Of a DNA stretch of 64,000 nucleotides, positions 150-62,939 are shown piece by piece. The notes beneath the pieces were generated by a model that saw nothing but the letters and a program-made list of their open reading frames with translations, made no database searches and was not told the origin of the DNA. The stretch comes from a virus. Taxonomy: Duplodnaviria > Caudoviricetes. Position 1 is the first letter of the stretch. Every line of letters starts with the position of its first letter. Made by a program: the position numbers and the translations under genes. The stretch lies in the IMG/VR virus record IMGVR_UViG_3300010356_002264, one strand, 5' to 3'.

Positions 150-613
150 GGGTCCCTCCACGGGCCCAGGACCTCTCCCGTCGCCCCATCCCTCTCCACG
201 ACCATCTGCACCGTCCCCTTGGCGGGTCCATCCTTGGTCCAGTAGTCGTAGAGGTACGTCTTGCCCTCGACGAAAACGTAGCCCCTCATGTTGTGGTTGG
301 TGAGGTCTTGCAGGTCAATGAGACCCGGCACGACGCGCCGAAGGGGCAGGATCAGCCCTCCGGCCTGGGCCGTCTTAGCCGCGGTGGCCTTCTCGATCTT
401 CTCGATCTTCAGGAGGTCCTCGACGGAGAAGTCCGTCGACGCGATGAGGTCACGAACCCGCGCAACTGGTACGCCCCGCAGGGCCTCCAGGATGACCTTC
501 TTGCAGGAGGGACAGTAGGTGGGGTCGTTCTGCACGTCCTGACAGCCTTGGCCAGACCCTTGGTAGTCGTAGGGAAGGGCGCAGTGCGCGCAGCGTTTTC
601 TCTGGTGTGTCAC
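146..613 (-). CDS. hypothetical protein with CxxC pairs
   Basis: CAHC and CPSC motifs; GTG at 613 is 36 nt downstream of CAGCTC. Confidence 0.7.
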   Translation of the reverse strand: MTHQRKRCAHCALPYDYQGSGQGCQDVQNDPTYCPSCKKVILEALRGVPVARVRDLIASTDFSVEDLLKIEKIEKATAAKTAQAGGLILPLRRVVPGLIDLQDLTNHNMRGYVFVEGKTYLYDYWTKDGPAKGTVQMVVERDGATGEVLGPWRDP

Positions 614-663
614 CCTGCTCACCCGAGGTGCCACAACGCGCGAGAGCTGTGCGATCGTGGGGT

Positions 664-1263
664 ATGTCTTTGTCCCGCACGGCTGGCTGGATCCCGAGCT
701 CCTTCCGATCCCCGGAGGACGAGAGCGACCCGAACCTCAACCGAAAGCCCATCGTCCTCGACGTACTGGGACCCGACTTCCGCACCTCGCTGCTCGGAAC
801 GGACCTCAAGCTGGTACTGCACGCCAACCCGAGTCAGGTGTCGGTGACGCGACCCAAGCTCACGACGACCGCCAACACGGAGCGAGGCCGCGTCCGCTGG
901 CACTACGGGCAGGCGGTCGCGCAGTTCTCCATGGAGGGGGCCACCGGGGGGTTTGTTCGCATGTACGCGGGCCTGACCGGGCTCGCCTCGATGGCCCGCA
1001 ACATCCCGTCACGAAGGGAGACCATCGCGTACGAGCGGTACCGAGACCTGCTGGCCCTGTTCCGCAACAACGCGTGCGTCTACTCATCGCGGGGCACGCC
1101 GATCCACTATGGGGTCATCGTGGTGACCTACGACGGAGCGAGCTACCGCGGCTGGTGGTCGAGCTTCACCTCCGCGGAGGACGCCTCCCGTCCGTACCAG
1201 TTCACGGTGAGCGCCGACCTCCAGGTGCGCGAGGAGCGCCGCGTGGCACGATCTCCCGCCTAG
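664..1263 (+). CDS. putative tail tube-initiator/baseplate protein (paralog of 8391..9368)
   Basis: LHANPSQVSVTRPK and VVTYDGASYRGWWSSF match motifs in 8391..9368; resembles gpU/gp48/gp54-like proteins. Confidence 0.55.
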   Translation: MSLSRTAGWIPSSFRSPEDESDPNLNRKPIVLDVLGPDFRTSLLGTDLKLVLHANPSQVSVTRPKLTTTANTERGRVRWHYGQAVAQFSMEGATGGFVRMYAGLTGLASMARNIPSRRETIAYERYRDLLALFRNNACVYSSRGTPIHYGVIVVTYDGASYRGWWSSFTSAEDASRPYQFTVSADLQVREERRVARSPA

Positions 1264-1325
1264 TAGGCGCTCAGCTCCGCCCCGCGACATGATCCCCACG
1301 GGTCTCCTAGAAAGGACTCATCGTC

Positions 1326-3083
1326 ATGAGGCTCACACCGCTCGCCAAGGGATTCATCACGCTCGTCATTCTCTCCGTAGTGGGGATCGTCTTGTGGACG
1401 AACCCGGGGCTGCGCAGCAAGCTTGCCCCCTCGAAGCCAACCCAGGAATCGCAGGTCCCGCAGATGGCGCAGTTGCCGGGCAGCAAGCAGGTCACGGCGG
1501 ACAAGCTGTCCGGTCAGCCGGGCTGCACCGACCGCCCAGAGGTCAAGCTCTGCATCCCGGCCTGGAACGGCCAGATGGGGCTCATCTACGCCACGGGAGG
1601 TGCGCAGGCGGGTCAGGGGAGCCTCATGTGCCGTCAGGGGGTTAACCTGCGCCTGGTGCGCGAGGACGACACAGCGAAGGCGTTCGCGGCGATCAGCACC
1701 TTCGCCACGGCCTTCCAGAAGGGAGAGCGGCAGCCCGCAGGCTGCGCGGGCATGGTCGTGATGGGCGACTCGCTGGCGCTCCACTACAACAACCTGAACA
1801 CCCAGCTTCGCACCGTCTGTCCGCGCTGCGAGGCCAAGGCCGTCGCGGTCCTCGGGTTCAGTGCCGGGGAAGACGTGGTGATGGTCCGCCCCGAGGCTCA
1901 GAAGGACCCGCAGAAGTTGCGCGGCAGCTACATCGCGGTCGTGCCCGGTGACGGGGACTACAACCTCCTCGTGCAGGGGGCCGCGATCAACAACCTGCCG
2001 GTGAACCCGAACTACAAGGTGTTCGACCCGAACGCCATCAACATCTACGCGGTCGCCGACTACCTCAAGGCCGCGGAGGCGTACATCGCCTCCCACTGCG
2101 AGAAGCTGCCCGACGCGAAGACCGGCGAGGTCGCACAGCACTGCGTCGATGGTGTCGCCACCTGGACGCCGGGCGACGCGAACATCGCCGAGCAGCGAGG
2201 TGGCCTCGTTCCGTGGATCTCGACGCGGGACTTCCCCCGCCAGATGCCAACCACGCTCATCCTCTACGGCCCCTGGGCCGAGGCCAACATGGACCTCGTG
2301 ACGGGGATGCTCGTCGCGGCGTTTCAGGGCAACGAGGCCGTCATGCGCAGCGATACCGCGCTCCACGCGGCGGCAGGCTTCTCGGCGCTCGTCTACAACG
2401 AGAAGGATGGCACCTACTGGAAGCGCTACTTCACGCGGCACGCCGAGACGGACAAGACCGGACAGCAGGTCGAACTCGGAGGGTCGTCGGTCGCCTCGTG
2501 GGCCGTGGCGAACGGCGTCATGACCAATGGCGTCTTCGAGGCCGTCTACCAGAACTTCGGGAACATCTTCCACAAGATGGACCCCGCCACGCTCCCGACG
2601 GTCCCCCCGTACTCCCAGGCGGTCGACCTGCGCTACATGGATCAGGCGGGATCGAAGCTCAAGCTCTTGAACCAGGCGGGTACCCCTGACGCTCCCACCT
2701 TCTCGGCCGCGACCCCCATGACGCGGCAGGTTGGTCGGCGCTCCTGGGCGATCCAGTTTCAGTCGGGGAAGGCGACCTTCGACCCGGCGACCTACGCGAC
2801 GCTGGATCAGCTTCGCACCCAGGCGATGATCGCCACCGGAACCATCATGGAGGTCCATGGACACACGGACTCGGCGGGCAGCCCAGCACGCAACATGATC
2901 TTGTCCCGCGAGCGTGCGGCGGCGGTCCAGCAGTACCTCATCGGGAAGTCGAACGGCGTCCTCACCCTAGCTGCCGTGCGCGTCTTCGCACACGGGTCCG
3001 ACCAACCTGTCGCCGACAACTCGACCGCTGAGGGCCGCGCGCAGAACCGACGCGTCGAGGTGGTCGTCGGGGCGGTCAACTAG
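1326..3083 (+). CDS. ABC substrate-binding protein (NMT1/TauA-like) fused to a C-terminal OmpA domain
   Basis: N-terminal TM anchor; C-terminal GHTD...NMILSRERAAAV...GRAQNRRVEV OmpA motifs; followed by a permease. Confidence 0.85.
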   Translation: MRLTPLAKGFITLVILSVVGIVLWTNPGLRSKLAPSKPTQESQVPQMAQLPGSKQVTADKLSGQPGCTDRPEVKLCIPAWNGQMGLIYATGGAQAGQGSLMCRQGVNLRLVREDDTAKAFAAISTFATAFQKGERQPAGCAGMVVMGDSLALHYNNLNTQLRTVCPRCEAKAVAVLGFSAGEDVVMVRPEAQKDPQKLRGSYIAVVPGDGDYNLLVQGAAINNLPVNPNYKVFDPNAINIYAVADYLKAAEAYIASHCEKLPDAKTGEVAQHCVDGVATWTPGDANIAEQRGGLVPWISTRDFPRQMPTTLILYGPWAEANMDLVTGMLVAAFQGNEAVMRSDTALHAAAGFSALVYNEKDGTYWKRYFTRHAETDKTGQQVELGGSSVASWAVANGVMTNGVFEAVYQNFGNIFHKMDPATLPTVPPYSQAVDLRYMDQAGSKLKLLNQAGTPDAPTFSAATPMTRQVGRRSWAIQFQSGKATFDPATYATLDQLRTQAMIATGTIMEVHGHTDSAGSPARNMILSRERAAAVQQYLIGKSNGVLTLAAVRVFAHGSDQPVADNSTAEGRAQNRRVEVVVGAVN

Positions 3084-3085
3084 CT

Positions 3086-4161: not shown

Positions 4162-4198
4162 ACAGCTCCGCCCCGCGCGACGGACCCGACACGTCCTC

Positions 4199-4231
4199 AT
4201 GGACAACCTGATCAACAGCGTGAGGGCGTAA
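4199..4231 (+). CDS. 10-aa leaderless micro-ORF MDNLINSVRA
   Basis: ATG exactly 36 nt after CAGCTC with CGAC at -12; its TAA overlaps the next ATG (TAATG). Confidence 0.45.
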   Translation: MDNLINSVRA

Positions 4232-4482
4232 TGGCTAGCTTTGACTGGGAGCTCCAAGATCAACTCGTGACGGCGACGGAGGAGGGGCCGGTCGCCCAGT
4301 GGTGCGACCGGCTGGCCTCGCTCTACAAGAAGGCGGGCGGTCAGGTGGCGCAGATCAACTGGAACAAGGCCCCCCTGTACGTCGCGGGCGACATCGTGGA
4401 GGGCGCGACATGCGGCGGTCTCCTGCCTCGTCTACGACAGGTGCTGGTGGAGTACGTTGGGACCAAGAAGAGTGCCCCGTGA
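4231..4482 (+). CDS. hypothetical protein
   Basis: ORF coupled on both sides (TAATG, GTGA). Confidence 0.6.
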   Translation: MASFDWELQDQLVTATEEGPVAQWCDRLASLYKKAGGQVAQINWNKAPLYVAGDIVEGATCGGLLPRLRQVLVEYVGTKKSAP

Positions 4483-5279: not shown

Positions 5280-5318
5280 TTCAGCTCGACAGAACACGAA
5301 AACCTCATCTCCCCTTCC

Positions 5319-6476
5319 ATGAGCACAGCCCAACTCCTCATTCCCTCCAAGCTGCGCGTGGGGTTCCAGGCGCGGTCCGACACCTACTCAGGACGTCTCG
5401 GGTTCGTCATCTACTTCGACGCCCAGGGGGTCCTGCGGAAGGCCACGGCCTGGTCCCGGTGGTGCGCCCGAAGCACCCCTCCTATCGACCCAGTCGACTA
5501 CGACAACCTCCCCACCGAGGGGTTCGTCCTCAACAGGGACGGCGGGGGGTCCCGACACTCGTACGGCTGGCACGTGCGGAACCCCTTCGCGCGCGTCTAC
5601 GACCCGCGGGGGTTCGAGGTGGAGATCACCATCCCGAACCTGTTCCTCATCCTGCGCGAGGGGACATGCCACCCAGGTAAGGGCCTGGAAGGCAAGTTCG
5701 TCTACGCCTGGGACAATCAGCAGCTCGTGCTGTTGCCCGTCAAGTCCGTCGACTACGAGCAGTCCACCGGATTCACGGCTCTACAGGGCCTGGAGGTCAC
5801 GGCGAAGGACCTCGTCGCCGGGCACACCTACGAGACGAAGCGCCAAGAGCATTGGGTGTACCTCGGGCGGTTTGATTACTACTACGCGGTCAGCGAGGGC
5901 CCCCCGCGAGCGTTGTGTCCGGACGAGACGCAGGGCAAGAAGCCCCCCAAACCCCGGAAGGACAAGGGGGTGCGGAAGAAGTACATCTTCGCGAAGCAGG
6001 CCGGCGACAAGTGGGTCCTCGTCTACCTCAACGAGCCCAAGGGGATCGCCCGCGTGTCCTCGACGACGACCCCGGACAACTTCGCGCACCTCGTCGACCT
6101 CCACACGCGAACCTTCCGTGGCAGCCGAGTCGAGAAGCTGGTGCTACGCCCGTCAAACGACAGGCAAACACCCCACGGATACGATAAATGGGCGTACGAG
6201 ATCGAACCTGGGACCTTTGCCCTCGCGGAGACGTACTCTCGTGGGGGTAAAGGACAGTACACCCACATCGAGAACAAGGTCTCGCTGCGGGCCGGCACAC
6301 TGGTCATCCAACCCCACGTAAACGGGTATGCGTTTGCTCCCGATTGCCCCCGGGAGCACTGGCAGAAACGGGCCGAAGGAATCGAGTGGCGCGAGCCCAC
6401 CGATGAGGTGCTGTACGCGCGCCTGGAGTGCGGGGTCGAGATTCCTGTGGTCCCCTGGCACATGAGAAAGGACTGA
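5319..6476 (+). CDS. phage hypothetical protein
   Basis: 385-aa ORF with typical codon use; CAGCTC 37 nt upstream. Confidence 0.75.
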   Translation: MSTAQLLIPSKLRVGFQARSDTYSGRLGFVIYFDAQGVLRKATAWSRWCARSTPPIDPVDYDNLPTEGFVLNRDGGGSRHSYGWHVRNPFARVYDPRGFEVEITIPNLFLILREGTCHPGKGLEGKFVYAWDNQQLVLLPVKSVDYEQSTGFTALQGLEVTAKDLVAGHTYETKRQEHWVYLGRFDYYYAVSEGPPRALCPDETQGKKPPKPRKDKGVRKKYIFAKQAGDKWVLVYLNEPKGIARVSSTTTPDNFAHLVDLHTRTFRGSRVEKLVLRPSNDRQTPHGYDKWAYEIEPGTFALAETYSRGGKGQYTHIENKVSLRAGTLVIQPHVNGYAFAPDCPREHWQKRAEGIEWREPTDEVLYARLECGVEIPVVPWHMRKD

Positions 6477-6934: not shown

Positions 6935-7794
6935 GCGAGGTCAAGGTTACCTGGGTGATCGAGGCGGAGGTGTTTCCCGCCGACGGAGTGGCTGCGCTTG
7001 AGGCTGAGGCCATTCGGGCGGGGCATCACGTCGTCGGATGGAAGGATGAGTGGAAGGACCCGCCCAGCCCCATCCAGCCAGCGGGGATGAACGTGGCGAG
7101 CCCGTTCGTGTTCCGCGGCAGCCTGGGGAACGCCCTCTGGGTGCGTGAGAACCTGGCCTGGCGGCCGGGCGCGTACTGCGACGCCCAGGCGTTCTGCTGC
7201 ACGAGCTACTACCCCCGCGCGGAACGATGGCTCCTCTGCGGAGCCAAGTGGCGCGCTCTGACCGCCCAGCAGTTCGTCGCGGAGGCACTAGACCAGCACC
7301 TCCAGCACTTCTTCGTGCGTCCCGACAGCCCGCTCAAGCCGTTCTCCGGGCGACTCCTCACGCGCGACCAGGTGTCGTGGGAGGCCATCGACTACGGGCT
7401 CTACTACGACGCGCGCGACCTCCTGGTGGTCGTCTCGGAGCCGCGGACGATCACGGCTGAGTGGCGCTTCGTGGTGGTCGACAGGCGGGTCGTCGCTGGG
7501 AGCGAGTACACCGCGCTCGGTCGCGCCGCGGTCCGCAGGGTGGAGGCCGGTCCCGCGTGGGACTTCGCGCAGGTGGTCGCCAGCGCGCTTGAACCCCCCG
7601 AGGACGTCTACGTGCTCGACGTATGTGAGGTGGACGGCCGCTACTACCTGCTGGAGCTCAACCCGTTCAGCGGAGCCGACCTCTACGCATGTGATCCCGC
7701 AGCAGTCATGCGCGCGGTGTCCGAGGTGGCACGGCGCGGGTTCACACCACTACCTCCTGTTCAGCTCCCGCCCTTCGTGCCCCCGCGACCCTAG
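6931..7794 (+). CDS. ATP-grasp domain protein (DUF4343/R2K-like)
   Basis: FVRPDSPLKPFSG, EWRFVV, YVLDVC, LLELNPFSGADLY. Confidence 0.8.
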   Translation: MSEVKVTWVIEAEVFPADGVAALEAEAIRAGHHVVGWKDEWKDPPSPIQPAGMNVASPFVFRGSLGNALWVRENLAWRPGAYCDAQAFCCTSYYPRAERWLLCGAKWRALTAQQFVAEALDQHLQHFFVRPDSPLKPFSGRLLTRDQVSWEAIDYGLYYDARDLLVVVSEPRTITAEWRFVVVDRRVVAGSEYTALGRAAVRRVEAGPAWDFAQVVASALEPPEDVYVLDVCEVDGRYYLLELNPFSGADLYACDPAAVMRAVSEVARRGFTPLPPVQLPPFVPPRP

Positions 7795-8016
7795 TTTGTC
7801 TGGGTGCCTAATCTCTCAGCCGTTTTGTGGCAGGTCTCGTGCGAACCGCTGGGTCCGGACAGTTCCAAGGCTGTGGGGCAACATCTCCGAGCAGTCACAA
7901 CGAGATCATCGGGCGGCTCAGCGGCCTCAAGCGAGTCGATGCTGAAACATCGCAGCCAGCGGCGAGGCGGAAGGTTTGTCGCCGCGCTGGGATCTCCCTA
8001 TCATGGGGTCCTAGTC

Positions 8017-9376: not shown

Positions 9377-10261
9377 ATGGCCCATGAATCTCCGCTCCGC
9401 GTCCTCCGGTCGACCGAGGACGCCTCCGTCAACTTCGTCGAGGAGGCGCTCGTCGGCTTCCTCGAGTCCCGCTTCGTGCGTAAGTGCGAGGACTACTTCG
9501 TCTGCTACCTATCATCCCAGACGGGATGCAACCGGGGATGCACCTTCTGCCACCTCACCGTCACAGGGCAGACCTCGTTTGCCGACTCGACCCACAACGA
9601 CTTCGTGGGGCAGGCCGTCCAGGTGTTCCGCCACTACCGGAAGCAGAGGCGGCCCGCCCGCTACGTCCACTACAGCTTCATGGCGCGGGGGGAACCCCTG
9701 GCGAACCGCGTGCTGCTCGACTCGGCCGACTCCCTGCTCGTCAAGCTCGGCGAGATGGCGCGCGACGACGGCCTCGGGGTGAAGTTCAACGTCTCCACCA
9801 TCATGCCGGCGACGCTGCACCGCGCGCTCCCCGAGGTGTTCCGACTCGTCCACCCGACGATCTACTACTCGCTCTACAGCGCCGACGAGGCGTGGCGGAG
9901 TCGGTGGTTACCGGGCGCGATGCGCCTCGCCGAGGCGCTGCGCCTGCTGCGTGAGTACCAGGAGTTCTCGAAGAAGTTCGTGAAGGTTCACTTCCCGCTC
10001 ATCGCCGGGGAGAACGACTCGGTCGAGCAGATCGAGGCGGTGTGTGAGGCGATCGATCGAGCGCACCTTCTCTGCGACTTCAACCTCGTACGCTACAACC
10101 CCGCCTCCCCAGACCAGGGGAGGGAGAGCGACGAGGAGACGATCGAGCATCGTCTCGGGATCATCCAGCGACGCTTCAAGGGAAAGGTGCAGGTCATCCA
10201 GCGGGTGGGTTATGACGTTGCGGCATCCTGCGGGATGTTCGCCGCCCCGAACTCGACCTGA
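9377..10261 (+). CDS. RlmN/Cfr-like radical SAM RNA methyltransferase (divergent)
   Basis: SSQTGCNRGCTFC (CxxxCxxC), MARGEPL, GENDS, NLVRYNP, DVAASCG. Confidence 0.85.
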   Translation: MAHESPLRVLRSTEDASVNFVEEALVGFLESRFVRKCEDYFVCYLSSQTGCNRGCTFCHLTVTGQTSFADSTHNDFVGQAVQVFRHYRKQRRPARYVHYSFMARGEPLANRVLLDSADSLLVKLGEMARDDGLGVKFNVSTIMPATLHRALPEVFRLVHPTIYYSLYSADEAWRSRWLPGAMRLAEALRLLREYQEFSKKFVKVHFPLIAGENDSVEQIEAVCEAIDRAHLLCDFNLVRYNPASPDQGRESDEETIEHRLGIIQRRFKGKVQVIQRVGYDVAASCGMFAAPNST

Positions 10262-10297
10262 CAGCTCCGCGGGTGACACGCAGCCCCAGCAGCCTCC

Positions 10298-11404
10298 ATG
10301 GGCTCATTCAACACCGCCTGCGCGCTTTCCCACGTCTCCATGGGAGGCGGGCCCGCCGTCTTCATCCCGCTCGTTCGTGGCCTCTTCAACAAGGGCGAAC
10401 CGATCGACGTCAGCGGGAATACGTCCATCGTGTCAAACGAGGGTCCGTACACGTTCTTCGTCGCGCTCTGCCCCCCGCTGTTCGGGCAGATGACCGACTA
10501 CGGCCGACTAGAGAACGTGGAGGACACCCCCACGGCCCGGGCGGTCGCCCGAGCGTTCGGCAAGTCCCCACAGGAGTTCCTGGACGCCTGCGGGGACTCC
10601 CAGACGGCTCCGGGCTTCGTGTTCCGATCGAGCGGGGGTTACGTGCAGGTCAATGAGCGCGTAGGGGGCTGCTTCGTGCACCGGCGCGTCTGGGACGAGA
10701 TGTCGACGCGGTTCCTCGATGAGTGGGGTCGTGACGGCCGCTCCCTGTGGCTGAGTGACGCGGCCCTGTACCCGCGCGTCCTCACGATGATGGGATTCGA
10801 GCAGCAGGGCCAGGACCTCAGGCGGGACCGCTACAAAATCCGGTGGGTCCACCCGCTCTTCCCGCGCCTCACCCTGTGGTCGGACGGCCGCTGGTGCTGC
10901 CTGGAGTGGCCCGGGATGCGTACGCGCAATGGGACCAGCTGCTACAGTCCGCGCGACGTCGCCCGCATGACCGTCACACACGGGGGCGGTCCCTCCCGGT
11001 TCCCCTGGCAGGTCGTCAAGCTCCTGCGCGCGACCCCCACGTATGCGGTCGAGCATGACGAGCACCTGGAGCAGGTGGCGAGCCTTCGGGAGATCTTCGC
11101 GCGCTCGGAGTCGTACATGAAGGGAGACAAGGGCTACCTCGCGTCACCAGGTGGAGGAAACCTGTTCGCCTACGGGCTTGATCCTGGATTCCTCGACCGC
11201 TTCTGGCCCGAGGTCTCAACGGGGGGCCTGCGGGACGAGCTCGTCGCGTGGTGGACGTTCGTCAGCAACATGGCGGCCTGCAACCAGGTCCTCATGCCCA
11301 GCTACAACGGTTACCAGTGTGGCAGTCCCTACGCGCACCGGGAACTCACGCGCCTCACGACTGAGATCCTCGACGAGACGATCCGTGATCGCGAGTCACG
11401 CTAG
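10298..11404 (+). CDS. hypothetical protein (paralog of 22646..23908)
   Basis: N-terminal MGSFNTACALS and DYGRLENVE; CAGCTC at -36. Confidence 0.7.
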   Translation: MGSFNTACALSHVSMGGGPAVFIPLVRGLFNKGEPIDVSGNTSIVSNEGPYTFFVALCPPLFGQMTDYGRLENVEDTPTARAVARAFGKSPQEFLDACGDSQTAPGFVFRSSGGYVQVNERVGGCFVHRRVWDEMSTRFLDEWGRDGRSLWLSDAALYPRVLTMMGFEQQGQDLRRDRYKIRWVHPLFPRLTLWSDGRWCCLEWPGMRTRNGTSCYSPRDVARMTVTHGGGPSRFPWQVVKLLRATPTYAVEHDEHLEQVASLREIFARSESYMKGDKGYLASPGGGNLFAYGLDPGFLDRFWPEVSTGGLRDELVAWWTFVSNMAACNQVLMPSYNGYQCGSPYAHRELTRLTTEILDETIRDRESR

Positions 11405-11904: not shown

Positions 11905-13156
<1,252 letters not shown>

Positions 13157-13193
13157 GCGTACGAGTCGATGTATTTCGTACGACTGGAGCTGA

Positions 13194-14200: not shown

Positions 14201-14551
14201 TTAGGAGCTGTCTTGCTGTGGGGTTGCTGCGCCGGCCTCCTGCATGAAAAGCAGGAGGGTGCGCCACTGCTCATCGGGGACTCCGAGCAGTCGAAATCGG
14301 AGCACCTCGCGGTCTCCCGTAACGAGCAAGACGTGGTCCGGGCTGGTAGGCACGTCCTCGTCGTCTTGCAGGCGGTCGAAGGTGTCCATGAGGAAGGTAA
14401 GCGGGGGCTGACGACGAAGCAGCCTGCCTCCGCGGTCCAGGTCGGCGATCTCGACGGTGCGGTCGGTCTCAGCCTCCTCGAACAGCAGCTTGCGCCCCGC
14501 CATCTTCAGGAAGCCCTCACCTAGGTGAGGATTCTCTACGTGGACGAACAT
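14201..14551 (-). CDS. hypothetical protein
   Basis: CAGCTC at -36. Confidence 0.65.
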   Translation of the reverse strand: MFVHVENPHLGEGFLKMAGRKLLFEEAETDRTVEIADLDRGGRLLRRQPPLTFLMDTFDRLQDDEDVPTSPDHVLLVTGDREVLRFRLLGVPDEQWRTLLLFMQEAGAATPQQDSS

Positions 14552-14630
14552 GTGCGGACCTACGGGGCGTGTTGGGTCTCAGAGCTGACTCCCCGCCAGG
14601 AATCACGTTACCCCGCGGTATGGTACGCCG

Positions 14631-22330: not shown

Positions 22331-22566
22331 GCGGCCTCCTTGGCACGACGATGCGGGGGATCGACCTTGGCGAGCCGCCTGCGCAGCGCCTGAAGCTCGT
22401 TGTCGAGGCGCTGGAACTGGACGGTCGGCCACTCCTCGGTGGACTCTGACTCGTTGTGCGCCTCGGACTCGGCCTCCATCTCGGACTCGATGTCGAGGAG
22501 GCGCTCCCGGATGCGTGCAACCTCAGGGTTTGGAGTCTCAGGGGTGACTTGGGGTTTGCGGCTCAT
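22327..22566 (-). CDS. small coiled-coil protein
   Basis: CAGCTC at -36 and CGACTA at -12. Confidence 0.7.
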   Translation of the reverse strand: MSRKPQVTPETPNPEVARIRERLLDIESEMEAESEAHNESESTEEWPTVQFQRLDNELQALRRRLAKVDPPHRRAKEAA

Positions 22567-22596
22567 ACCGTGTAGTCGAGGATCAACAACCGTACG

Positions 22597-22615
22597 GAGC
22601 TGACCTTCTCAGCTC
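22597..22615. promoter_or_regulatory. back-to-back CAGCTC promoter pair
   Basis: GAGCTG-ACCTTCT-CAGCTC; each copy is 36 nt from its ATG (22566-, 22646+). Confidence 0.8.
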
Positions 22616-22645
22616 CGCATGCGGTCCGCAGAATCACCCCCCCAC

Positions 22646-23908
22646 ATGGGATGCTTTGACCTCTCCTGCTGCGTGTCTGGGCTGCCGATCCGAGCCGACG
22701 ACCCGGTGATGTTCTTCCTCGTCACCAAGAACCCCAGCGCGCGACGCTGCACTCACAGTGTGGACGGCACCTGGGTCGCCCGCACATTCCCGCTGCGGGC
22801 CCGCTACAATGACTACGGGAGCATCGAGGAGGTCGAGGAGGGACCGCTGCGCGACGTCATCCTGGAGGGTCTCGCTCAGGACGTCGTCGAGAAGGGCGTG
22901 GGATCCAACGTCTGTCACGACGTGGCAGTGCGACGGGACATGGACTTTGACGCCCTGCTCCGTGCCCTGTGGGAGGGGCGCGTCGAGGTGCGGGCCGGCT
23001 TCGGGCGGGGGACGCGCAAGGAACCCACGCATGAGGACAAGATAGCGTGGGACGCTGAAGCTGGACCCGGCGTCCCCACGATACGAAGAATCGAGGAGGC
23101 GATCACGAAGGCTGGACTGCCCGTGGCCTTCAACGTCGACGGGAACTGGAACTTACCCAACGGTTACATCGTGGACCGTCTCAATCCCGGCGAGGTGACT
23201 ATTCGGTACTTCGGTGGGTTTGGACTTGGCCAGGAGGGGACGGCCCAGCACCTGGAGAAGGTGCTCCCCCTACTCACCGAGTACGCGACCGCCCTGTGGC
23301 CCCACGACTACAACGAGGCGGAGATCCGGGTGCGGCCGAAGGTCGGGACGACCTTCCACCAAATCCACCACTACTGGGACAACACCCTGTCGGTCAAGCA
23401 GGCGATGATCCGACAGGACGTGTGGGACGCGATCCTCCAGCTACGTGTCCCCAAGAGCTGGTACGCCTCGGACGGCAAGACCGTAGGGATCAGAGAGTAC
23501 GTCCGGGATGCGCGCCGCACCTGGGCGGACCTCAGCCGACCTGCTGGCATGGACGAGGTGCTGGCACGCGTCACGGAAGGGGGTGAGAAGTTCCGGGAGC
23601 GCTACGGGGCCCCGGTCCTCACCTACGTCGGAGGCGAGAGCCAGGGAGCGGGAGGGTCTGTGACGCTGTACGGGCACGCCGACCTGCTCATGCGCAAGAA
23701 GCTCAGCCGCGCGCAGGTGCGGTACATCACCCAGCGGGCTGGTGAGTTCGCCTTCGTGCGTGCGGTCCTCGGTCGCGCGGGCCGCTACCACCTGCCCTCG
23801 CACCACAGCCCCGGTCAGAGCACGCCCCCCCACCCGGCGCTCGCGCTTCAGGAGGCGATCATCAAGGTCACGCGTCGGAACCGAAGGAAGTACGACCGGA
23901 TGAGGTAG
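22646..23908 (+). CDS. hypothetical protein (paralog of 10298..11404)
   Basis: MGCFDLSCCVSGLPI and YNDYGSIEEVE; CAGCTC at -36. Confidence 0.75.
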   Translation: MGCFDLSCCVSGLPIRADDPVMFFLVTKNPSARRCTHSVDGTWVARTFPLRARYNDYGSIEEVEEGPLRDVILEGLAQDVVEKGVGSNVCHDVAVRRDMDFDALLRALWEGRVEVRAGFGRGTRKEPTHEDKIAWDAEAGPGVPTIRRIEEAITKAGLPVAFNVDGNWNLPNGYIVDRLNPGEVTIRYFGGFGLGQEGTAQHLEKVLPLLTEYATALWPHDYNEAEIRVRPKVGTTFHQIHHYWDNTLSVKQAMIRQDVWDAILQLRVPKSWYASDGKTVGIREYVRDARRTWADLSRPAGMDEVLARVTEGGEKFRERYGAPVLTYVGGESQGAGGSVTLYGHADLLMRKKLSRAQVRYITQRAGEFAFVRAVLGRAGRYHLPSHHSPGQSTPPHPALALQEAIIKVTRRNRRKYDRMR

Positions 23909-24158: not shown

Positions 24159-24666
24159 GGTCGGGGTGGGCTTCCGCGATGTCGAACATGTGAGGCCCCA
24201 GCACGACAGTTACCTGCCGCGCAGACTCTCGATGAAGGATCTGGAGGACCCCGAGCGTAAGGCTGTGCTGGGGGCTGTATTTTTCGGGGTCGAAGACGAT
24301 CACCCCGCGCAGCTTGGTCCGTCGCATGTAGTAGGCCGTGGCCCACGCGACCGCGTAGATGCTGTCGGGGCCGTTCCGCACAAAGTCCGGCAAGTTGGCC
24401 TGGAGGGGAGCACAGGCCGCAACCATGTGTAGGAACGTCTGAGCCTCATTGATGCTCAGGCGGGCATGCAGGAGGTTCAGTAACTCCAGGGAGTTCGCCG
24501 CGTGGGAGGCATCAAGCGCCAGAAGACCGGCCTCGGCTACCTCAGCCAGCCCGGACTCTGTGAGGGGTTTCGGTAGGGGGGCCCGGGAGACGTAGAAGTG
24601 CGCGTACCGGCCCACGAGGAGGTGGATCTTCTCCTGGCGGATAGGGGTGTCCTGCTGTGTGTGCAT
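24043..24666 (-). CDS. hypothetical protein
   Basis: ATG at 24666 with CAGCTC at -36. Confidence 0.65.
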   Translation of the reverse strand: MHTQQDTPIRQEKIHLLVGRYAHFYVSRAPLPKPLTESGLAEVAEAGLLALDASHAANSLELLNLLHARLSINEAQTFLHMVAACAPLQANLPDFVRNGPDSIYAVAWATAYYMRRTKLRGVIVFDPEKYSPQHSLTLGVLQILHRESARQVTVVLGPHMFDIAEAHPDLTLIRTSAPFGSLPPSPAGEPATVPPGGAPPARGPAGA

Positions 24667-24720
24667 GAAGCCACCTCGATGCGGCCGTGACGCTGGGAGC
24701 TGTAGCGGGTAGGGTGCCGC

Positions 24721-25543: not shown

Positions 25544-25555
25544 TACTATGAACGC

Positions 25556-31488: not shown

Positions 31489-31526
31489 GCGAGGTAGTCC
31501 GCGGGGAGCAGCTTTGCGGAGCTGAC

Positions 31527-32216: not shown

Positions 32217-32686
32217 CGCTTTCCGTCCTTCTGACCCAGGGAGGCGCGCCGAGCGCGCTCCATCAGGTCCAGCACCTTGGAACGCGGAAGGTCGAGCACC
32301 ACGGACAGCTCGTCGGCCACCATGGATCGGAGTCGGTCACGCAGCGTACGCTCCACGTAGGAGGGAGTCTTCCGCCCCAGCAGGTCACGCAGGTGGCTCG
32401 CGAGCTCCGACAGGACGCTCTCCTTGACCACCTCCTCGTAGACGCGGCGACGGCGCGTCCAGTAGTTGTGGGCCAGGGGCTCTGGGGCCTCAGCCAGGAG
32501 GTCCAGGACCTCCTGAGCCTCGACCGGAGTGACCGTCTCACGCGTCATCAAGTCCACACGCTCGGGAGGGATCTCGATGCGTGGTGGGGTTCCCAAGGAC
32601 GTGAGAGGCTCCAGGACGAGGAGGTCATCATCCGATGACAGGACCCTACACACGCCCACTCCTCGGTACACACGGTGGTTTGCCAT
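32213..32686 (-). CDS. carD: CarD/CdnL-family RNA polymerase-binding transcription factor
   Basis: VYRGVGVCRV, RETVTPVEAQEVLDLL, NYWTRRRR (conserved Trp), LSELASHLRDL, SYVER...VADELSVVL. Confidence 0.75.
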   Translation of the reverse strand: MANHRVYRGVGVCRVLSSDDDLLVLEPLTSLGTPPRIEIPPERVDLMTRETVTPVEAQEVLDLLAEAPEPLAHNYWTRRRRVYEEVVKESVLSELASHLRDLLGRKTPSYVERTLRDRLRSMVADELSVVLDLPRSKVLDLMERARRASLGQKDGKR

Positions 32687-32761
32687 ACTGTTTTCTAGCT
32701 GCGAGACACATGGCGGAGCTGAGGTGTCGCGCGAATCCGACTGGAGGTTCATCGACCTGCC

Positions 32762-40581: not shown

Positions 40582-41189
40582 CGCCCGCCCAGGTGGCCGC
40601 CGCGTGCGGCCTGAAGGACCCCGACGCCCACGTGCGGGCAGCCGAGACGGTCGCCCCGTCCACGGACGGCCGCAAGCGCGGCTACACGACCCGGATGCTC
40701 TGCCAGGCGGTCTCCCACGCCTCCGAGGGCAAGGAGGTGGTGGTGGTCGCCCTGCCCTCCTACGTGCGGGACGAGACGATGTTCCGGCTCGCGACCGGCA
40801 TGGCCGCGCGGGCGGGGCTCCGGCTCCAGCGCATCGAGGGGCAGCGGGCGCAGTTCGACCGCGGGTCGATCCGCGTGGCGTCGAGCCAGGACCCCGCGGG
40901 CGTGCCGGCAGGAGAGCGGCCCGGCCTCGTGGTGCTGCGCGACCACCTCGTCGAGGCGACGGCCCCGCTGTACCTCCCCGCCAAGGAGTGGACCTGCCAC
41001 CACGTGGTCCCCCGCGACGGGAAGCGCTGCGCGTCGTGCGGTGAGGACCTGCGAGGCCAGGACCTGCGCGACGCCCGGCGCCGGCGCGGGGAGCAGGAGG
41101 CCGCCCAGCGCGAGGTCCCGAGCAGGGTGATCCTCGACCCCCGGGGGACAGCTCCCGCGTCAGCCACGTACGTTCCCCAGAAGCCATGA
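40578..41189 (+). CDS. hypothetical protein with a P-loop-like RKRGYTT segment
   Basis: GTGA overlap. Confidence 0.5.
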   Translation: MTPAQVAAACGLKDPDAHVRAAETVAPSTDGRKRGYTTRMLCQAVSHASEGKEVVVVALPSYVRDETMFRLATGMAARAGLRLQRIEGQRAQFDRGSIRVASSQDPAGVPAGERPGLVVLRDHLVEATAPLYLPAKEWTCHHVVPRDGKRCASCGEDLRGQDLRDARRRRGEQEAAQREVPSRVILDPRGTAPASATYVPQKP

Positions 41190-47163: not shown

Positions 47164-47214
47164 TCAGCTCCACCCAGCTCCCCCCACCCCGACGGGTCCC
47201 CAAAGGAGTCCCCC

Positions 47215-48280: not shown

Positions 48281-48284
48281 GGGC

Positions 48285-48869: not shown

Positions 48870-48907
48870 CGCAGCTCTACGAGGAGCAGAGGGTTCGACG
48901 TAGGGGT

Positions 48908-49177
48908 ATGGCGACGACGCAGGATCTAGAGGAAGAGATCAACCGGGCGGCGGAGTACGCGGGGTTTCCGTCGAGGTGGGTGGCGCGGGTGGTGGAGCGG
49001 GATGGGGATGTATGGGTGGAGGTAGACGGGCGTGTCTACCAGGTGGACCTGGCGTGGGCGCTGGGGAACGTGAGGCGGTTGGCGGACCGGTGTTCGGTGG
49101 CGCAGATGGTGCACGCGCTGGAGGTGTCGCACCCTGGGGTGATGGGGGTGAGCAGCAAGCAGCGGGCGCGGGGTTAG
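48908..49177 (+). CDS. hypothetical protein
   Basis: CAGCTC at -36 and CGAC at -12. Confidence 0.65.
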   Translation: MATTQDLEEEINRAAEYAGFPSRWVARVVERDGDVWVEVDGRVYQVDLAWALGNVRRLADRCSVAQMVHALEVSHPGVMGVSSKQRARG

Positions 49178-50022: not shown

Positions 50023-50063
50023 GGCGTGAAGTCGATGTGCATCCGTCGGATGGAGCTGAGGGC

Positions 50064-50447
50064 TTACCTCTGGGTGATGGACGCGAGCGCGTCGGGTCCC
50101 GTGTGGGTGTGGGGCTTGCCCGCGGGGAGGTACAGGGCCCCGAGGGCGTTGACGCCCTCCAGCTTGTCCGAGTAGATGGTGCCACGGGGGGTCGGGTGGG
50201 GCTTCTTGTAGGTCTCGGGCTTGAGGACGGCGCCGGTCGTCTTGTCGACGAAGCAGAAGGCGCGCTCGTGCCGGTGGCGGTCCGACTCGGGACCCGAGTA
50301 GTGGACGTCGAGGACGAGCACGTAGCGGCGGCCGTCCTTGCACTCCAGGGTGTGGGAGGTGCGGCTCTCCTCGGCGTCGACGATCTTCTGGGCGCGGGCG
50401 ACGAAGGTCGCGAGGGCAGCGGGGAAGCGGGGGTCTGTCTGGCTCAT
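50064..50447 (-). CDS. phage hypothetical protein
   Basis: FCFVDKTTGAVLKPETYKKP..RGTI; CAGCTC at -36. Confidence 0.7.
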   Translation of the reverse strand: MSQTDPRFPAALATFVARAQKIVDAEESRTSHTLECKDGRRYVLVLDVHYSGPESDRHRHERAFCFVDKTTGAVLKPETYKKPHPTPRGTIYSDKLEGVNALGALYLPAGKPHTHTGPDALASITQR

Positions 50448-50484
50448 GGGGGAGAGTCGCCCGGTCGGGTCGGATCGGAGCTGA

Positions 50485-50733: not shown

Positions 50734-50798
50734 GGGGGGAGGTCGCTGGCCGCGGACGGACCCGAGCTGTTCGGAGCCCAGCGGGCGGGTTGACGAAA

Positions 50799-51622: not shown

Positions 51623-51854
51623 CGGGCACTTTGGGGAGGAAGGGGGCCGCGGCCTGCTCGGCGGCGAGCGCCGCCTGGAGGACGTCGGGGGCGGTGCCGC
51701 CCGCGAGGCGCTTGTGCCCGTCCCAGACGGTCCAGGCGGGGTCGCGGTCCTCGCAGGTGGTGACCTGGAGGTACAGGTGCTGGGCGCGCGCCGACCACCA
51801 GGGCTGGATGTCCTGCTGCTGGGTCCATCCTTCAGGGAGCTTTGGAGTCTTCAT
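51609..51854 (-). CDS. hypothetical protein
   Basis: CAGCTC at -36 and CGACTA at -12. Confidence 0.65.
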   Translation of the reverse strand: MKTPKLPEGWTQQQDIQPWWSARAQHLYLQVTTCEDRDPAWTVWDGHKRLAGGTAPDVLQAALAAEQAAAPFLPKVPDASA

Positions 51855-53922: not shown

Positions 53923-54722
53923 TAGGTGTTCCCTCCGACCCACTCGCCGGCCTCGTTCCACTCGCCGGGGTGGTGCGCTAGTTGCTGTATCGTCGACACG
54001 GCCACGCGGTCGATCGACCCGAGGATGACCTGCTTGCCATAGGGCTTGCCGCCCACACGAAACTCCCCGTTCTTGTGGTCGAACGACAAGAGCGACCGCG
54101 AGGTCTCCTCGTCGGTTCGGCAGAGCTCCCGGAGCATGAAGTTGATCAGCAGCTTCTCTCGAAGCTCGCTGTACCTGTAGCCTTCCTCCGTCGAGGTGAC
54201 CACCTCGCGGACCTTGCATAGTTCGGACAGCAGCGTGCGGAGGTACGAGGGGTCGGTGAACGCGCTCGCGTACCCCTTGGCCCCACGTACCTCCTCGTGG
54301 TTAGCGGAGGTATGCGCCATCGCCAGGAGCCGCAGCGTCCGTTCCCACCGAGGGGTTCCGACCGGAGGGCTGACCAAGCAGCGCGGGCTGAACGACGTTC
54401 CCGTGACGTAGCACTCTCCCACCACGGAGATCGCGTGGGCCATGACGGTCCAGTCGTAGCGCAGTCCGGCGAGGAGGACTGTGTTGGGGTCACAAGCGGT
54501 GACCACCAGCGTGGAAGGAAATGTGCTCTCGGGCGACACCGGCAGGCCGAGGAACGGTGCCAGGCGGTTGAGCACGGATGTGCGCAGTACGACGGCGGCA
54601 TCCTCGACGCCGTCCAGCGCGCGGTAGATGCGGTAGAGGTTCAGCAGGTCCGCACGCTTGTCCTCATCAGGCTTCGAGGTCGTGTTGAGGTGGAGGGCTT
54701 GAATCCAGGATGGCCGGTTCAT
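53922..54722 (-). CDS. hypothetical protein
   Basis: CAGCTC at -36 and CGACTA at -12. Confidence 0.65.
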   Translation of the reverse strand: MNRPSWIQALHLNTTSKPDEDKRADLLNLYRIYRALDGVEDAAVVLRTSVLNRLAPFLGLPVSPESTFPSTLVVTACDPNTVLLAGLRYDWTVMAHAISVVGECYVTGTSFSPRCLVSPPVGTPRWERTLRLLAMAHTSANHEEVRGAKGYASAFTDPSYLRTLLSELCKVREVVTSTEEGYRYSELREKLLINFMLRELCRTDEETSRSLLSFDHKNGEFRVGGKPYGKQVILGSIDRVAVSTIQQLAHHPGEWNEAGEWVGGNT

Positions 54723-54774
54723 GCCGCCTAGTCGCGTGGACACCAAAGACCGGAGCTGAAGGGTATGTATCGAC

Positions 54775-55704: not shown

Positions 55705-55945
55705 CGGCGCGTAGCTCGTCGAGGCGAACCTTGAGCAAGGACGGAGTCTTGACCGAGGACGGGGTGCCCGCGAGGATCGCGTAGCGTGTCTCCGCGCGGA
55801 GTGCTCGCTCCTCGTTAATGAGCCCCTCCTGGGCCGCTACGCAGAGGTGGTCGAAGCACAGGGGGTAGGTGTCCTTCTTGTGTGTGAGGGTCGTGACGAC
55901 CGGCTCCGAACAGGGGACGTACGCGCACCTGGGAGGATTGTCCAT
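55610..55945 (-). CDS. hypothetical Cys-rich protein
   Basis: CAGCTC at -36. Confidence 0.55.
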   Translation of the reverse strand: MDNPPRCAYVPCSEPVVTTLTHKKDTYPLCFDHLCVAAQEGLINEERALRAETRYAILAGTPSSVKTPSLLKVRLDELRAVIRDPSQRPPGRTPCRGSTPSRARGVSPRPA

Positions 55946-55975
55946 GCGCCTTCCTGGGTTGTTCGTCACGGTCCG

Positions 55976-55990
55976 GAGCTGACTCAGCTC
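55976..55990. promoter_or_regulatory. back-to-back CAGCTC promoter pair
   Basis: GAGCTG-ACT-CAGCTC; each copy is 36 nt from its ATG (55945-, 56021+). Confidence 0.8.
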
Positions 55991-56020
55991 CAAAGACCTT
56001 TTACTCATCGACTACAAGAC

Positions 56021-56941
56021 ATGTGCTTCCAGACCACGCCCTCCCTGGGCAGCTACATCGAGCTGTACGACCCGCTGTACCACCCTGTCGATGGGCGACC
56101 TCCCTTGATCGTCGCGTACGGGATGGGGGTTGACTCGACCGCCATGCTCGTCGAGCTGGTGAACCTGTCGATCCGACCCGACCTGATACTCTTTGCAGAT
56201 ACCGGGGACGAGAAGCCGGAGACCTACGCCTACCTGGCGATCATCAACGCCTTCCTGCGCGCGAACGGCTACCCAGAGGTCATCGTGGTGCGTCGCTCTC
56301 CGACGACCTCTCGCAAGAGCGGGATGGTGTACAGGACACTCGGGGAGAACTGCGTGGCCAACGCGACGCTCCCCTCGCTGGCGTTCGGTCGCAAGGGGTG
56401 CTCGCAGAAGTGGAAGCGTGAGCCGCAGGATAAGCACGTCAACGGTTGGGCTCCGGCGCGCGCGGCCTGGAAGCGTGGGCAGAAGGTCGTCAAGCTCATC
56501 GGCTACGACGCCGGGCCCAAGGACGCGCGTCGCAGCAAGATCGCCGACGACGCCAAGTACACCTACCTCTATCCACTGCGCGAGTGGGGGTGGGACCGAG
56601 AGCGGTGCGAGCGAGAGATCGCGCGCGCCGGCCTGCCGGTGCCCCCGAAGTCGGCCTGCGTGTTCTGCCCGGCCACCAAGCCCGAGGAGCTAGAGGAGAT
56701 GATCCGTCGAGACGTGCAGGTCGCCTACAAGATCATCCAGATGGAGGCGGTGGCGGCTCCGGGGCTAAAGAACATCGACGGCCTGTGGCGCAAGGCAACC
56801 AAGAAGCGGCCCGGCGCGATGACCCCCTACGTGCGAGAGGTACTCCAGCGGATCGCCGACGAGAAGGGGCGCGGCGTCGTGCGGTCCCCTGCGCTGCGGG
56901 TCCTGCGGGAGGACGACGCGAGCACAACCCCCTGCGGGTAG
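56021..56941 (+). CDS. PAPS-reductase-like (PP-loop) protein
   Basis: AYGMGVDSTAML, FADTGDEKPETY, CSQKWK, YPLREWGW, KSACVFCP. Confidence 0.8.
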   Translation: MCFQTTPSLGSYIELYDPLYHPVDGRPPLIVAYGMGVDSTAMLVELVNLSIRPDLILFADTGDEKPETYAYLAIINAFLRANGYPEVIVVRRSPTTSRKSGMVYRTLGENCVANATLPSLAFGRKGCSQKWKREPQDKHVNGWAPARAAWKRGQKVVKLIGYDAGPKDARRSKIADDAKYTYLYPLREWGWDRERCEREIARAGLPVPPKSACVFCPATKPEELEEMIRRDVQVAYKIIQMEAVAAPGLKNIDGLWRKATKKRPGAMTPYVREVLQRIADEKGRGVVRSPALRVLREDDASTTPCG

Positions 56942-62075: not shown

Positions 62076-62078
62076 CAT

Positions 62079-62153
62079 GCGGGTTTGGCCGAGCGGCCCA
62101 GGCACCAGCTTCCCAAGCTGGACACGAGGGTTCAACTCCCTCAACCCGTACCA
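62079..62153 (+). tRNA. tRNA-Gly(CCC)
   Basis: CCAGC-TTCCCAA-GCTGG; A73; CCA. Confidence 0.9.
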
Positions 62154-62154
62154 T

Positions 62155-62227
62155 GCGAGCGTCGCCCGACCGGCCGGGCACCAGCCTTCCAAGCTGGACC
62201 AAGCGGGTTCGAGTCCCGTCGCTCGCT
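62155..62227 (+). tRNA. tRNA-Gly(TCC)
   Basis: CCAGC-CTTCCAA-GCTGG; U73. Confidence 0.88.
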
Positions 62228-62267
62228 CTGACAGCTCGGCGGGTAGTTCCTTCCCAGAGGAACTCCC

Positions 62268-62939
62268 ATGAAGATCTGCAAGGATGGCAAGCGGGTCGTT
62301 GTTACGGACCACGCCGCAACACGGTACGCCGCTCGGTACGACCGCGGGCTTGGGGTCGAGGAGGCCCGCACGAAGCTGGGGGTCCACATCATGAAGTCGA
62401 GCGCCAAGCGGCTCGTGGACAAGTCTCCCGCGGGGGACCCCCTCATGCTGCTACCGGAACTCGACTGCGTGGTGGTGATCAAGCCAGACAACCGAGAGGG
62501 GCACGAGGGGGACCTCGTGGTCCCCACGGTCCTCGACAACCCGGATCGAAAGGTGAACCGAGGGCCGATGTACGAGAAGCTCGCGGCGATGTCCAACCTG
62601 CGCGCGACCCTCCCCGCGCAGGTGCAGGATCCGCCGCCGCCTCAAGCCCCCGAGGAACCCGAGGAACCAGAGGAACCAGAGGAACCAGAGGAGCCGCCGA
62701 AGTCGACACCTAGCGTTGACTGGCTGGAGCTCCAGCAGCTTCGTCGAATGCGTGACCAGCTAGATGTCCTGGTCGCCTCGTTGCGGAAGCGTGAGCAGCA
62801 CATTCGGGTCTCGGTCGCGGGCATCCCGGAGAACCTGAACCTTCAGGGGTGGGCCGACCGCCACATGACGCTGGCCGTGGAGCTAGGGTCCATCGGGGAC
62901 GAGGTCGAGCGCTTGCTAGCGCAGACTGCTCGGGCGTAG
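62268..62939 (+). CDS. hypothetical protein inside the tRNA cluster (TDHA..RY N-terminal domain, EEP repeats)
   Basis: CAGCTC at -36; stop codon overlaps tRNA-Gln. Confidence 0.7.
   Translation: MKICKDGKRVVVTDHAATRYAARYDRGLGVEEARTKLGVHIMKSSAKRLVDKSPAGDPLMLLPELDCVVVIKPDNREGHEGDLVVPTVLDNPDRKVNRGPMYEKLAAMSNLRATLPAQVQDPPPPQAPEEPEEPEEPEEPEEPPKSTPSVDWLELQQLRRMRDQLDVLVASLRKREQHIRVSVAGIPENLNLQGWADRHMTLAVELGSIGDEVERLLAQTARA

Follow-up and report, generated by a model that had tools for sequence, protein, structure and literature searches.

A putative promoter code locked to start codons and its candidate phage sigma factor in a very large uncultured phage

The viral record IMGVR_UViG_3300010356_002264 (Duplodnaviria; Caudoviricetes) was analyzed over a window of 64,000 nucleotides (nt), which corresponds to bases 8996-72995 of an 82.5-kb IMG/VR contig (G000; CheckV completeness 28%). 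The same genes are also present on a 331,503-bp ENA contig from a separate assembly, and the window is therefore a piece of a very large, uncultured phage from sludge. Its GC content ranges from 62 to 72%, and megablast of 20 kb against GenBank phages returned no close DNA relatives. Annotated genes include a 1556-amino acid (aa) protein with an amidase domain, a baseplate-J protein, an RNA ligase, a CarD-like protein and a hydrolase with metallo-beta-lactamase fold, and an array of 43 tRNA genes starts at 61.2 kb. The stretch was extended to 110.5 kb via overlapping assemblies (exact-protein matches), and about 110 kb of the 331-kb genome was searched. Upstream of many genes on both strands lies a motif of the form CAGCTC-N18-CGACTA-N6-ATG (class I). 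The original prediction had read it as the -35/-10 elements of a phage or extracytoplasmic function (ECF)-like sigma factor, from which mRNAs start at the AUG; this motif and its candidate reader are the subject of the present analysis.

The hexamer CAGCTC occurs 66 times in the window. An ATG lies exactly 36 nt downstream of 23 of these copies and a GTG downstream of two (613-, 24971+), which accounts for all 25 sites predicted at this distance; the three copies predicted to deviate, with ATG at 37 nt (5319+, 41186+) or 35 nt (32686-), were recovered as well. At the other offsets between 6 and 99 nt, ATG was found 0.65 times on average and three times at most (binomial P = 1.5e-29 for offset 36). 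When all 4096 hexamers were scanned at offsets 20-60, CAGCTC at 36 ranked first with 23 occurrences, followed by its own shifted versions, while the best unrelated hexamer reached nine occurrences at sites without a common pattern. As the total number of copies is ordinary (66 versus 53.8 +/- 7.8 in shuffled sequences), the signal is positional. Over the whole 82.5-kb contig, ATG stands at offset 36 for 28 of the 83 CAGCTC copies and about once at other offsets, and the 110.5-kb stretch holds 34 motif starts with open reading frames (ORFs) of at least 50 codons. Altogether the class I code is found at about one third of the genes examined.

Aligning the 28 sites of the 82.5-kb contig gave the full motif W-CAGCTC-C (-37 to -30), N17, CGACTA (-12 to -7) and C-1/A+1. 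In the upstream block T or A precedes an invariant CAGCTC, and C-30 follows in 19/28 sites. Hexamers with one mismatch were not enriched (16 at offset 36, 4-22 at other offsets), and the upstream block is therefore effectively invariant. The downstream block is looser, with C-12 in 21, G-11 in 19, A-10 in 25 and C-9 in 18 of the 28 sites and a preference for T at -8 and A at -7; C-1/A+1 is present in 25. The CG-containing form typical of ECF -10 elements, CGAC starting at -12, is present in exactly 13 of the 25 window sites at 36 nt, the number that had been claimed. The window sites are as follows; unless noted otherwise, each is a class I motif at 36 nt from the start codon given, with a predicted transcription start (+1) at that codon.

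611..650, minus strand: class I, GTG 613, 36 nt; weakest -10 (CGGGTG), G at -1
1271..1328, plus strand: class I with leader; predicted +1 at 1308, Shine-Dalgarno (SD) sequence AAGGA, ATG 1326 of an OmpA-domain protein
4162..4233, plus strand: class I; the ATG at +1 (4199) opens a 10-codon ORF, the real gene has ATG 4231
5281..5321, plus strand: class I, spacing 37, ATG 5319, 385 aa; phrog_2475 alignment from residue 4
7761..7806, plus strand: possible class I (weak); CGACCC at -12, predicted +1 at 7798, GTG 7804
10261..10300, plus strand: class I, ATG 10298, 368 aa; phrog_5960 alignment from residue 1
13154..13193, minus strand: class I, ATG 13156, 103 aa
14154..14211, minus strand: class I with leader; predicted +1 at 14174, SD GGAG, ATG 14156
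14549..14588, minus strand: class I, ATG 14551, 116 aa
19273..19312, plus strand: class I, ATG 19310, 139 aa
19731..19833, plus strand: class I; the ATG at +1 (19768) opens a 3-codon ORF, and the 755-aa gene at 19831 follows after a 63-nt leader
22564..22603, minus strand: class I (CGACTA), ATG 22566, divergent from 22646
22609..22648, plus strand: class I, ATG 22646, 420 aa; phrog_5960 alignment from residue 1
24664..24703, minus strand: class I, ATG 24666, 207 aa
24934..24973, plus strand: class I, GTG 24971, 190 aa, phrog_1017; baseplate-J gene directly downstream
31486..31525, minus strand: class I, ATG 31488, 338-aa RNA ligase; residue 31 aligns with position 27 of phrog_548
32684..32722, minus strand: class I, spacing 35, ATG 32686, CarD-like protein of 157 aa
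33479..33530, plus strand: class I with leader; predicted +1 at 33516, SD AAGGA, ATG 33528
41148..41188, plus strand: class I, spacing 37, ATG 41186, 159 aa
43173..43212, plus strand: class I, ATG 43210, 122 aa
46224..46263, plus strand: class I, ATG 46261, 300 aa
47164..47217, plus strand: class I with leader; predicted +1 at 47201, SD AGGAG, ATG 47215
48871..48910, plus strand: class I, ATG 48908, 89 aa
50020..50059, minus strand: class I, ATG 50022, 282 aa, metallo-beta-lactamase fold
50445..50484, minus strand: class I, ATG 50447, 127 aa
50731..50770, minus strand: class I, ATG 50733, 82 aa
51852..51891, minus strand: class I (CGACTA), ATG 51854, 81 aa
52779..52818, minus strand: class I (CGACTA), ATG 52781, 125 aa; database gene caller agrees on the start
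54720..54759, minus strand: class I (CGACTA), ATG 54722, 266 aa; database gene caller agrees on the start
55943..55982, minus strand: class I, ATG 55945, 111 aa, divergent from 56021
55984..56023, plus strand: class I (CGACTA), ATG 56021, 306 aa
57351..57390, plus strand: class I, ATG 57388, 110 aa
58871..58922, plus strand: class I with leader; predicted +1 at 58908, SD GGAGG, ATG 58920, 449 aa
62231..62270, plus strand: class I within the tRNA array, immediately 3' of tRNA-Gly; ATG 62268, 223 aa

A further copy, CAGCTC-N18-CGACCC at 8682-8723 on the minus strand, falls within the plus-strand gene 8391-9368. No start codon stands at +36, and the copy could represent an antisense promoter or have arisen by chance.

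Cluster K mycobacteriophages carry start-associated sequences, 13-bp motifs that lie a few bases before the start codon and overlap the ribosome-binding site. The class I motif is arranged differently: 30 nt separate its invariant block from the ATG, and it is not accompanied by an SD. That most motif genes lack an obvious SD, as had been noted from the sequence, was borne out by the counts: an SD-like 4-mer precedes 6/34 motif genes (random rate 22%) versus 27/43 other genes (Fisher P = 8e-5). The pattern reverses at the five copies that lie 48-54 nt from the ATG (1326, 14156, 33528, 47215, 58920), where the longer leader was said to be filled by an SD and where AGGA or GGAG was indeed found between the predicted +1 and the ATG in all five cases. 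A motif is also present upstream of a lone minus-strand tRNA-Met(CAT) gene (L040:17336-17470), about 15.3 kb past the window end and opposite in orientation to the 42 plus-strand genes of the tRNA array; here TCAGCTCC-N17-CGATCC-N6-A places the predicted +1 8 nt before the mature 5' end. SD sequences in the longer leaders, together with a motif before a lone tRNA, argue for a promoter and not a translation signal. In the divergent pairs 22566/22646 and 55945/56021, one motif is found per strand with 76-80 nt between the ATGs. Canonical TTGACA/TATAAT promoters were not found in 44-64 kb, and terminators were not in excess there.

An alternative to a promoter is an RNA-level or protein-binding signal, such as a processing site that generates leaderless 5' ends, a translation enhancer or a stoperator-like repressor operator repeated across the genome. 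The preceding gene often ends 1-4 nt short of the motif (TAG-T-CAGCTC, TGA-CAGCTC), so that read-through transcripts would contain it, and the two copies of a divergent pair form an inverted repeat. However, copies followed by an SD lie at variable distances from the ATG, a tRNA gene follows one copy, and both mRNAs of a divergent pair would need to start within the opposite gene. Stoperators of mycobacteriophages have no fixed distance to start codons, and A-10 and C-1/A+1 are features of promoters and start sites, which leaves a signal of this kind as the least probable of the explanations considered. For ECF promoters, spacers of 16-18 bp, a pyrimidine-purine start and a position usually beside or divergent from the sigma gene have been described (PMC7776599), and A-10 and C-1/A+1 match the start-site features reported there. 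The fixed bipartite geometry, the SD pattern, the divergent pairs, the tRNA copy and the conservation across phages described below all support the proposed -35/-10 reading, and the motif is very probably a promoter that sets +1 at or beside the ATG.

The coding score of the first 50 codons was positive at 34/34 motif ATGs, and the in-frame stretch upstream was negative. Gene calls of public assemblies use the motif ATG for 15/58 genes, and all five motif-defined proteins with PHROG matches align within 4 residues of the profile N-terminus, in agreement with the proposal that the motif corrects start calls. Exceptions are ATG 4199, whose 10-codon ORF ends in a TAA overlapping the ATG of 4231 as TAATG, and ATG 19768, which opens a 3-codon ORF 63 nt before 19831. 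These mini-ORFs could be upstream ORFs that are translated leaderless and coupled to the main gene; alternatively, ATG could be preferred as initial transcribed sequence. For the most part, class I serves small genes whose function is enzymatic (RNA ligase, CarD-like protein, hydrolase) or unknown. A restriction to accessory, non-structural genes, as originally proposed, holds as a tendency but not as a rule, since genes within the tail/baseplate block are also preceded by copies (19310, 19831 by way of 19768, 22646, 24971).

Nine genes in the 110 kb carry a second motif, ggTAnnnT, at a distance of exactly 6 nt from their ATG, the gap at which the count peaks (class II). It precedes the largest structural genes, and the nine include those of 1556 aa (14631), 1125 aa (25556) and 1080 aa.

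14619-14633, 25544-25558, 43532-43546 and, on the minus strand, 33511-33528: class II sites

Actinobacterial leaderless promoters carry TANNNT about 6-7 nt before A/GTG (Cortes et al., 2013; PMC3898074). The large structural genes of the phage use host-type, -10-only leaderless starts, which argues that the host translates leaderless mRNAs. Judged from these two motifs, the phage has at least two predicted promoter tiers. The CarD-like protein (32213-32686, minus strand; CarD_C E = 2e-6; Atlas structure match with a template modelling score of 0.86), whose own gene follows a class I motif at 35-nt spacing, might help open complexes to form at class II promoters, which have a -10 only. Its Atlas neighbours point weakly to a host among the Actinomycetota; the host marker WhiB was not found on the 82.5-kb fragment or on the fragment of a second phage (G001), described next.

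To see where else the code occurs, 2.9 million IMG/VR contigs were scanned with the strict pattern. A single other user was obtained, the 134.7-kb contig G001 (66% GC), which has no DNA similarity to the present phage and a single weak protein match. It carries 20 ATGs at offset 36 and seven at 37, with a CGAC(T)A block and with A-10 and C-1 in 15/19 sites each. Seven other IMG/VR contigs obtained with a relaxed pattern were rejected, as their 1-2 sites each correspond to chance level. A search of 596 Gb of cellular genomes (185,579 species) with the strict consensus returned 15 isolated hits. The sole multi-copy locus, with four CAGCTC-N30-ATG sites, was a contig of 4394 bp and 69% GC (CAZMBE010000072.1; L199) binned in a 'Syntrophaceae' metagenome-assembled genome; it is most likely a misbinned fragment of a related phage and no evidence for a host. 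With no multi-copy use in cells, the code belongs to a small phage clade alone and is not a cellular regulon. In full-text literature, the hexamer together with 'leaderless' and 'phage' returned primer coincidences only.

These comparisons bear on the alternative that a sigma factor of the host, for example a host ECF, reads the promoter and that the phage borrows a host regulon signal. Two phages that share the code and nearly no proteins would fit one host factor, especially as no homolog of the sigma candidate introduced below is present on the G001 fragment. Moreover, CGAC-type -10 elements are typical of cellular ECF sigma factors such as sigma-X and sigma-W of B. subtilis, the sigma-X promoter being TGTAAC-N17-CGAC. 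A host regulon is, however, difficult to reconcile with a consensus that never exceeds one copy per locus in the 185,579 species save for one phage-like contig.

With CAGCTC at -36 to -31, CGACTA at -12 to -7 and a spacer of 18 bp, the motif has the two-block geometry of the sigma-70 family (16-18 bp), both in the 28 sites of the present phage and in the 19 of G001. We propose that W-CAGCTC-C would act as -35 element and CGAC(T)A, with its near-invariant A-10, as -10 element, and that transcription would start 7 nt past the -10 block, at a purine with a C before it. This purine would in most copies be the A of the ATG, and the resulting mRNA, devoid of 5' leader and SD, would be translated leaderless. 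The predicted reader is the host RNA polymerase core with a phage ECF-like (group-4-like) sigma factor of 257 aa, whose region 4 would contact the -35 block and region 2 the CGAC block. The exact start site, the leaderless translation and this sigma factor as reader are in each case deduced from sequence. For the whole, a phage-private bipartite promoter giving leaderless transcripts and read by a phage ECF-like sigma factor on the host core, we estimate a probability of about 0.6.

Two other phage-directed modes of transcription were weighed against this proposal. A phage RNA polymerase, single-subunit or split multisubunit as in the phiKZ-type jumbo phages, could be encoded in so large a genome (331 kb), as such phages sometimes carry their own polymerases and about a third of the genome was searched. 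A T7-type polymerase (PF00940) or beta-prime subunit (PF00623) did not give a signal in the 217 kb of G000 and G001, the PF00940 search having had no positive control; both contigs are fragments (28-30% complete), on which a missing gene is no evidence of absence. Single-subunit enzymes recognize one contiguous block of about 20 bp over the start site (-17 to +6), unlike the blocks at -36 and -12 with their variable spacer sequence, and the enzymes of phiKZ and AR9 use short start-site motifs, likewise unlike the two-block pattern of the sigma-70 family found here. A phage polymerase is accordingly regarded as very unlikely. Somewhat less remote, though improbable, is remodelling of the host's primary sigma, with a phage activator bound to CAGCTC at -35, in the style of MotA/AsiA of T4. 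The invariant upstream block with its looser -10 would suit an activator box, and a polymerase-binding protein is encoded by the phage in the form of the CarD-like protein. Sigma appropriation retains the -10 of the primary sigma factor, but CGACTA with A-10 differs from TAnnnT and from the host-type ggTAnnnT-N6 of class II. No MotA- or AsiA-like gene turned up, although no search aimed at them was made.

The concrete candidate for a phage-encoded sigma factor, as had been guessed from the motif, was found by searching beyond the window. It is a protein of 257 aa (L044:3892-4665, minus strand) encoded about 33 kb past the window end. It has four close homologs, and a profile search of 1.84 billion representatives yielded 567 relatives; relatives are present in many phage contigs of 200-600 kb. 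Among 64 aligned family members, Sigma70_r2 was detected in 22 and Sigma70_ECF in 12. The family profile matched sigma-H in the PDB (3mzy; E = 4.9e-11, profile positions 116-269, regions 2 and 4). An AlphaFold model from the 64-sequence alignment reached a predicted local distance difference test (pLDDT) score of 89, and its Foldseek matches in the PDB at ranks 1-37 were nearly all sigma factors, mostly ECF; an earlier model from five sequences was unusable (pLDDT 54). In both profile and fold, regions 2 and 4 are present and regions 1.1 and 3 absent, as defined for group 4, and the protein is on these grounds classed as a predicted member of the sigma-70 group-4-like (ECF-like) family. It carries about 115 extra N-terminal residues including a small beta-sheet domain. 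Sigma70_r2, Sigma70_r4_2 and the sigma family profile were negative on the fragments G000 and G001. Inside the sigma ORF, CAGCTC-N18-CGAT is present at L044:4070-4111 (minus strand; codons SSAPSALD...) and is kept in L046 and L045; it could be an internal promoter or reflect mere protein conservation.

The gene divergent from the sigma gene would link the candidate to the motif. It carries CAGCTC-N30-ATG in the present phage and in two relatives whose sigma proteins are 83% and 63% identical, with sigma identities of 63-99% over the three phages, while the spacer sequence has diverged. In the syntenic relative L047 (57% GC, sigma 41% identical), TCAGATC stands at exactly -36 of six genes including the divergent ortholog. 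This word differs by one base (CAGATC), and the -10 is also different. The shift of a whole regulon to CAGATC in a relative with a diverged sigma, and the conservation of the motif-driven neighbour of the sigma gene, both speak against the host sigma factor considered above, which we hold to be unlikely, though less so than the other alternatives. The joint pattern of word and sigma fits a phage-encoded specificity factor, as a correlation over few lineages, and on this basis the phage sigma factor is the probable reader of the motif. A metagenome scan for close sigma relatives yielded distant ones only (at most 34% identity) and no added covariation data for the CAGCTC clade.

Several observations weigh against this assignment. 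Taken alone, the candidate matched in Pfam only Sigma70_r4_2, below threshold (13.9 bits at a cut-off of 25.7; E = 0.042), and the Foldseek E-values were individually weak (best 8.6e-3). The AAC core that is the hallmark of ECF promoters is absent from the -35 block WCAGCTCC. In L048, whose sigma is 35% identical, a divergent pair retains CAGCTC at 37 nt (two sites), which indicates that the divergence of motif and sigma does not track simply. G001 carries the code and has no member of the sigma family on its 135-kb fragment. Finally, with about 110 kb of the 331-kb genome searched, another sigma factor or polymerase could be encoded elsewhere.

Phage-specific promoters read by phage sigma factors have precedents. 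The promoters of the Bacillus phage SPO1 consist of -35 and -10 elements that are unlike host promoters, and class I resembles them in this respect and in its many copies. The SPO1 middle and late promoters are part of a temporal cascade and are read by the phage sigma factors gp28 and gp33/34 on the host core (PMC13401047); they have leaders and SD sequences, whereas the promoter described here is locked to the start codon with its predicted +1 at the A of the ATG. Another precedent is phage phiEco32 (Kuravirus). Its ECF-type sigma factor gp36, of a group described as an outlier among ECF families, binds the host core and redirects it to phage promoters in lytic infection (as cited in PMC7881722). 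Both phages would combine a divergent ECF-like sigma with phage-specific promoters, a likeness of role that is a prediction here. In contrast to phiEco32, which has an enterobacterial host and leadered mRNAs, the present system has another promoter sequence, the N-terminal addition of about 115 aa and a family that spans very large phages.

Class I resembles cellular ECF promoters in its two short blocks set 16-18 bp apart, in a -10 that contains CG (CGAC/CGTC) with a key base close to -10, in its predicted pyrimidine-purine start and in a copy adjacent to or divergent from the sigma gene (PMC7776599). It differs in that its -35 block CAGCTC lacks the usual AAC core and about a third of the genes examined are served instead of a handful of stress genes, and no anti-sigma factor was identified. 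As in the actinobacterial leaderless promoters (PMC3898074), the predicted transcription start falls on the start codon and an SD is lacking, and the class II promoters (14631, 25556) follow the actinobacterial grammar. With its strict -35 block, and with CGACTA instead of TANNNT as -10, class I should need a different sigma factor. Phage sigma regulons as such are known from phiEco32 and SPO1; new are the code itself, its coupling to the start codon at about a third of genes, the single-base variant in a relative and the large uncatalogued sigma family.

If the proposed reading is correct, about a third of the genes of the 331-kb phage, mostly genes of unassigned function, would receive exact starts of transcription and translation, and a second expression tier under phage control would exist beside the host-type promoters of the structural genes. 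A large regulon composed entirely of leaderless genes would be a natural test bed for leaderless translation, and a large unannotated protein family of huge phages would be tied to sigma function. The CAGCTC/CAGATC pair would offer a simple system to study the evolution of sigma specificity and possibly orthogonal promoter/sigma parts for high-GC bacteria.

Several distant phages with family members have dense promoter-like codes of their own, two of which place the ATG at a fixed 32-35 nt. In L078:12200-19200, cgattcttGGTTAC-N13-ctCCGTGGTG-N6-ATG occurs in 13 copies within 7 kb and is apparently leaderless. L050:11400-13800 carries tgtcgattgtggCTAAAC...GGATAG...ATG, L174 has gatt-N9-GGGTAGTATA followed by an SD leader, and GGGATCATCT and GGGTTGTCT-N3-CGTGGAA were found in L208 and L209, respectively. 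Hexamer/offset hits in L071/72, L079 and L172 were rejected, being coding tandem repeats and not promoters. A broader and rather speculative generalization would be that huge phages possess a large, so far undescribed sigma family, ECF-like and extended by an N-terminal domain, and that every lineage pairs its sigma with a private, near-invariant word before many genes: CAGCTC here, CAGATC in the syntenic relative and, elsewhere, GGTTAC...CCGTGGTG or CTAAAC...GGATAG. High-GC lineages would then lock the promoter to the start codon and express at least a third of their proteome from leaderless mRNAs, and the family might amount to a naturally occurring collection of orthogonal sigma/promoter pairs in which specificity changes one base at a time.

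Within the window, the region 44000-52000 reaches a GC content of 72%, with a GC skew of -0.30 at 44-48 kb and +0.30 at 48-52 kb. The flip of the skew coincides with the flip of gene orientation near 48.9 kb, and the sense strands at 44-52 kb are therefore strongly C-rich.

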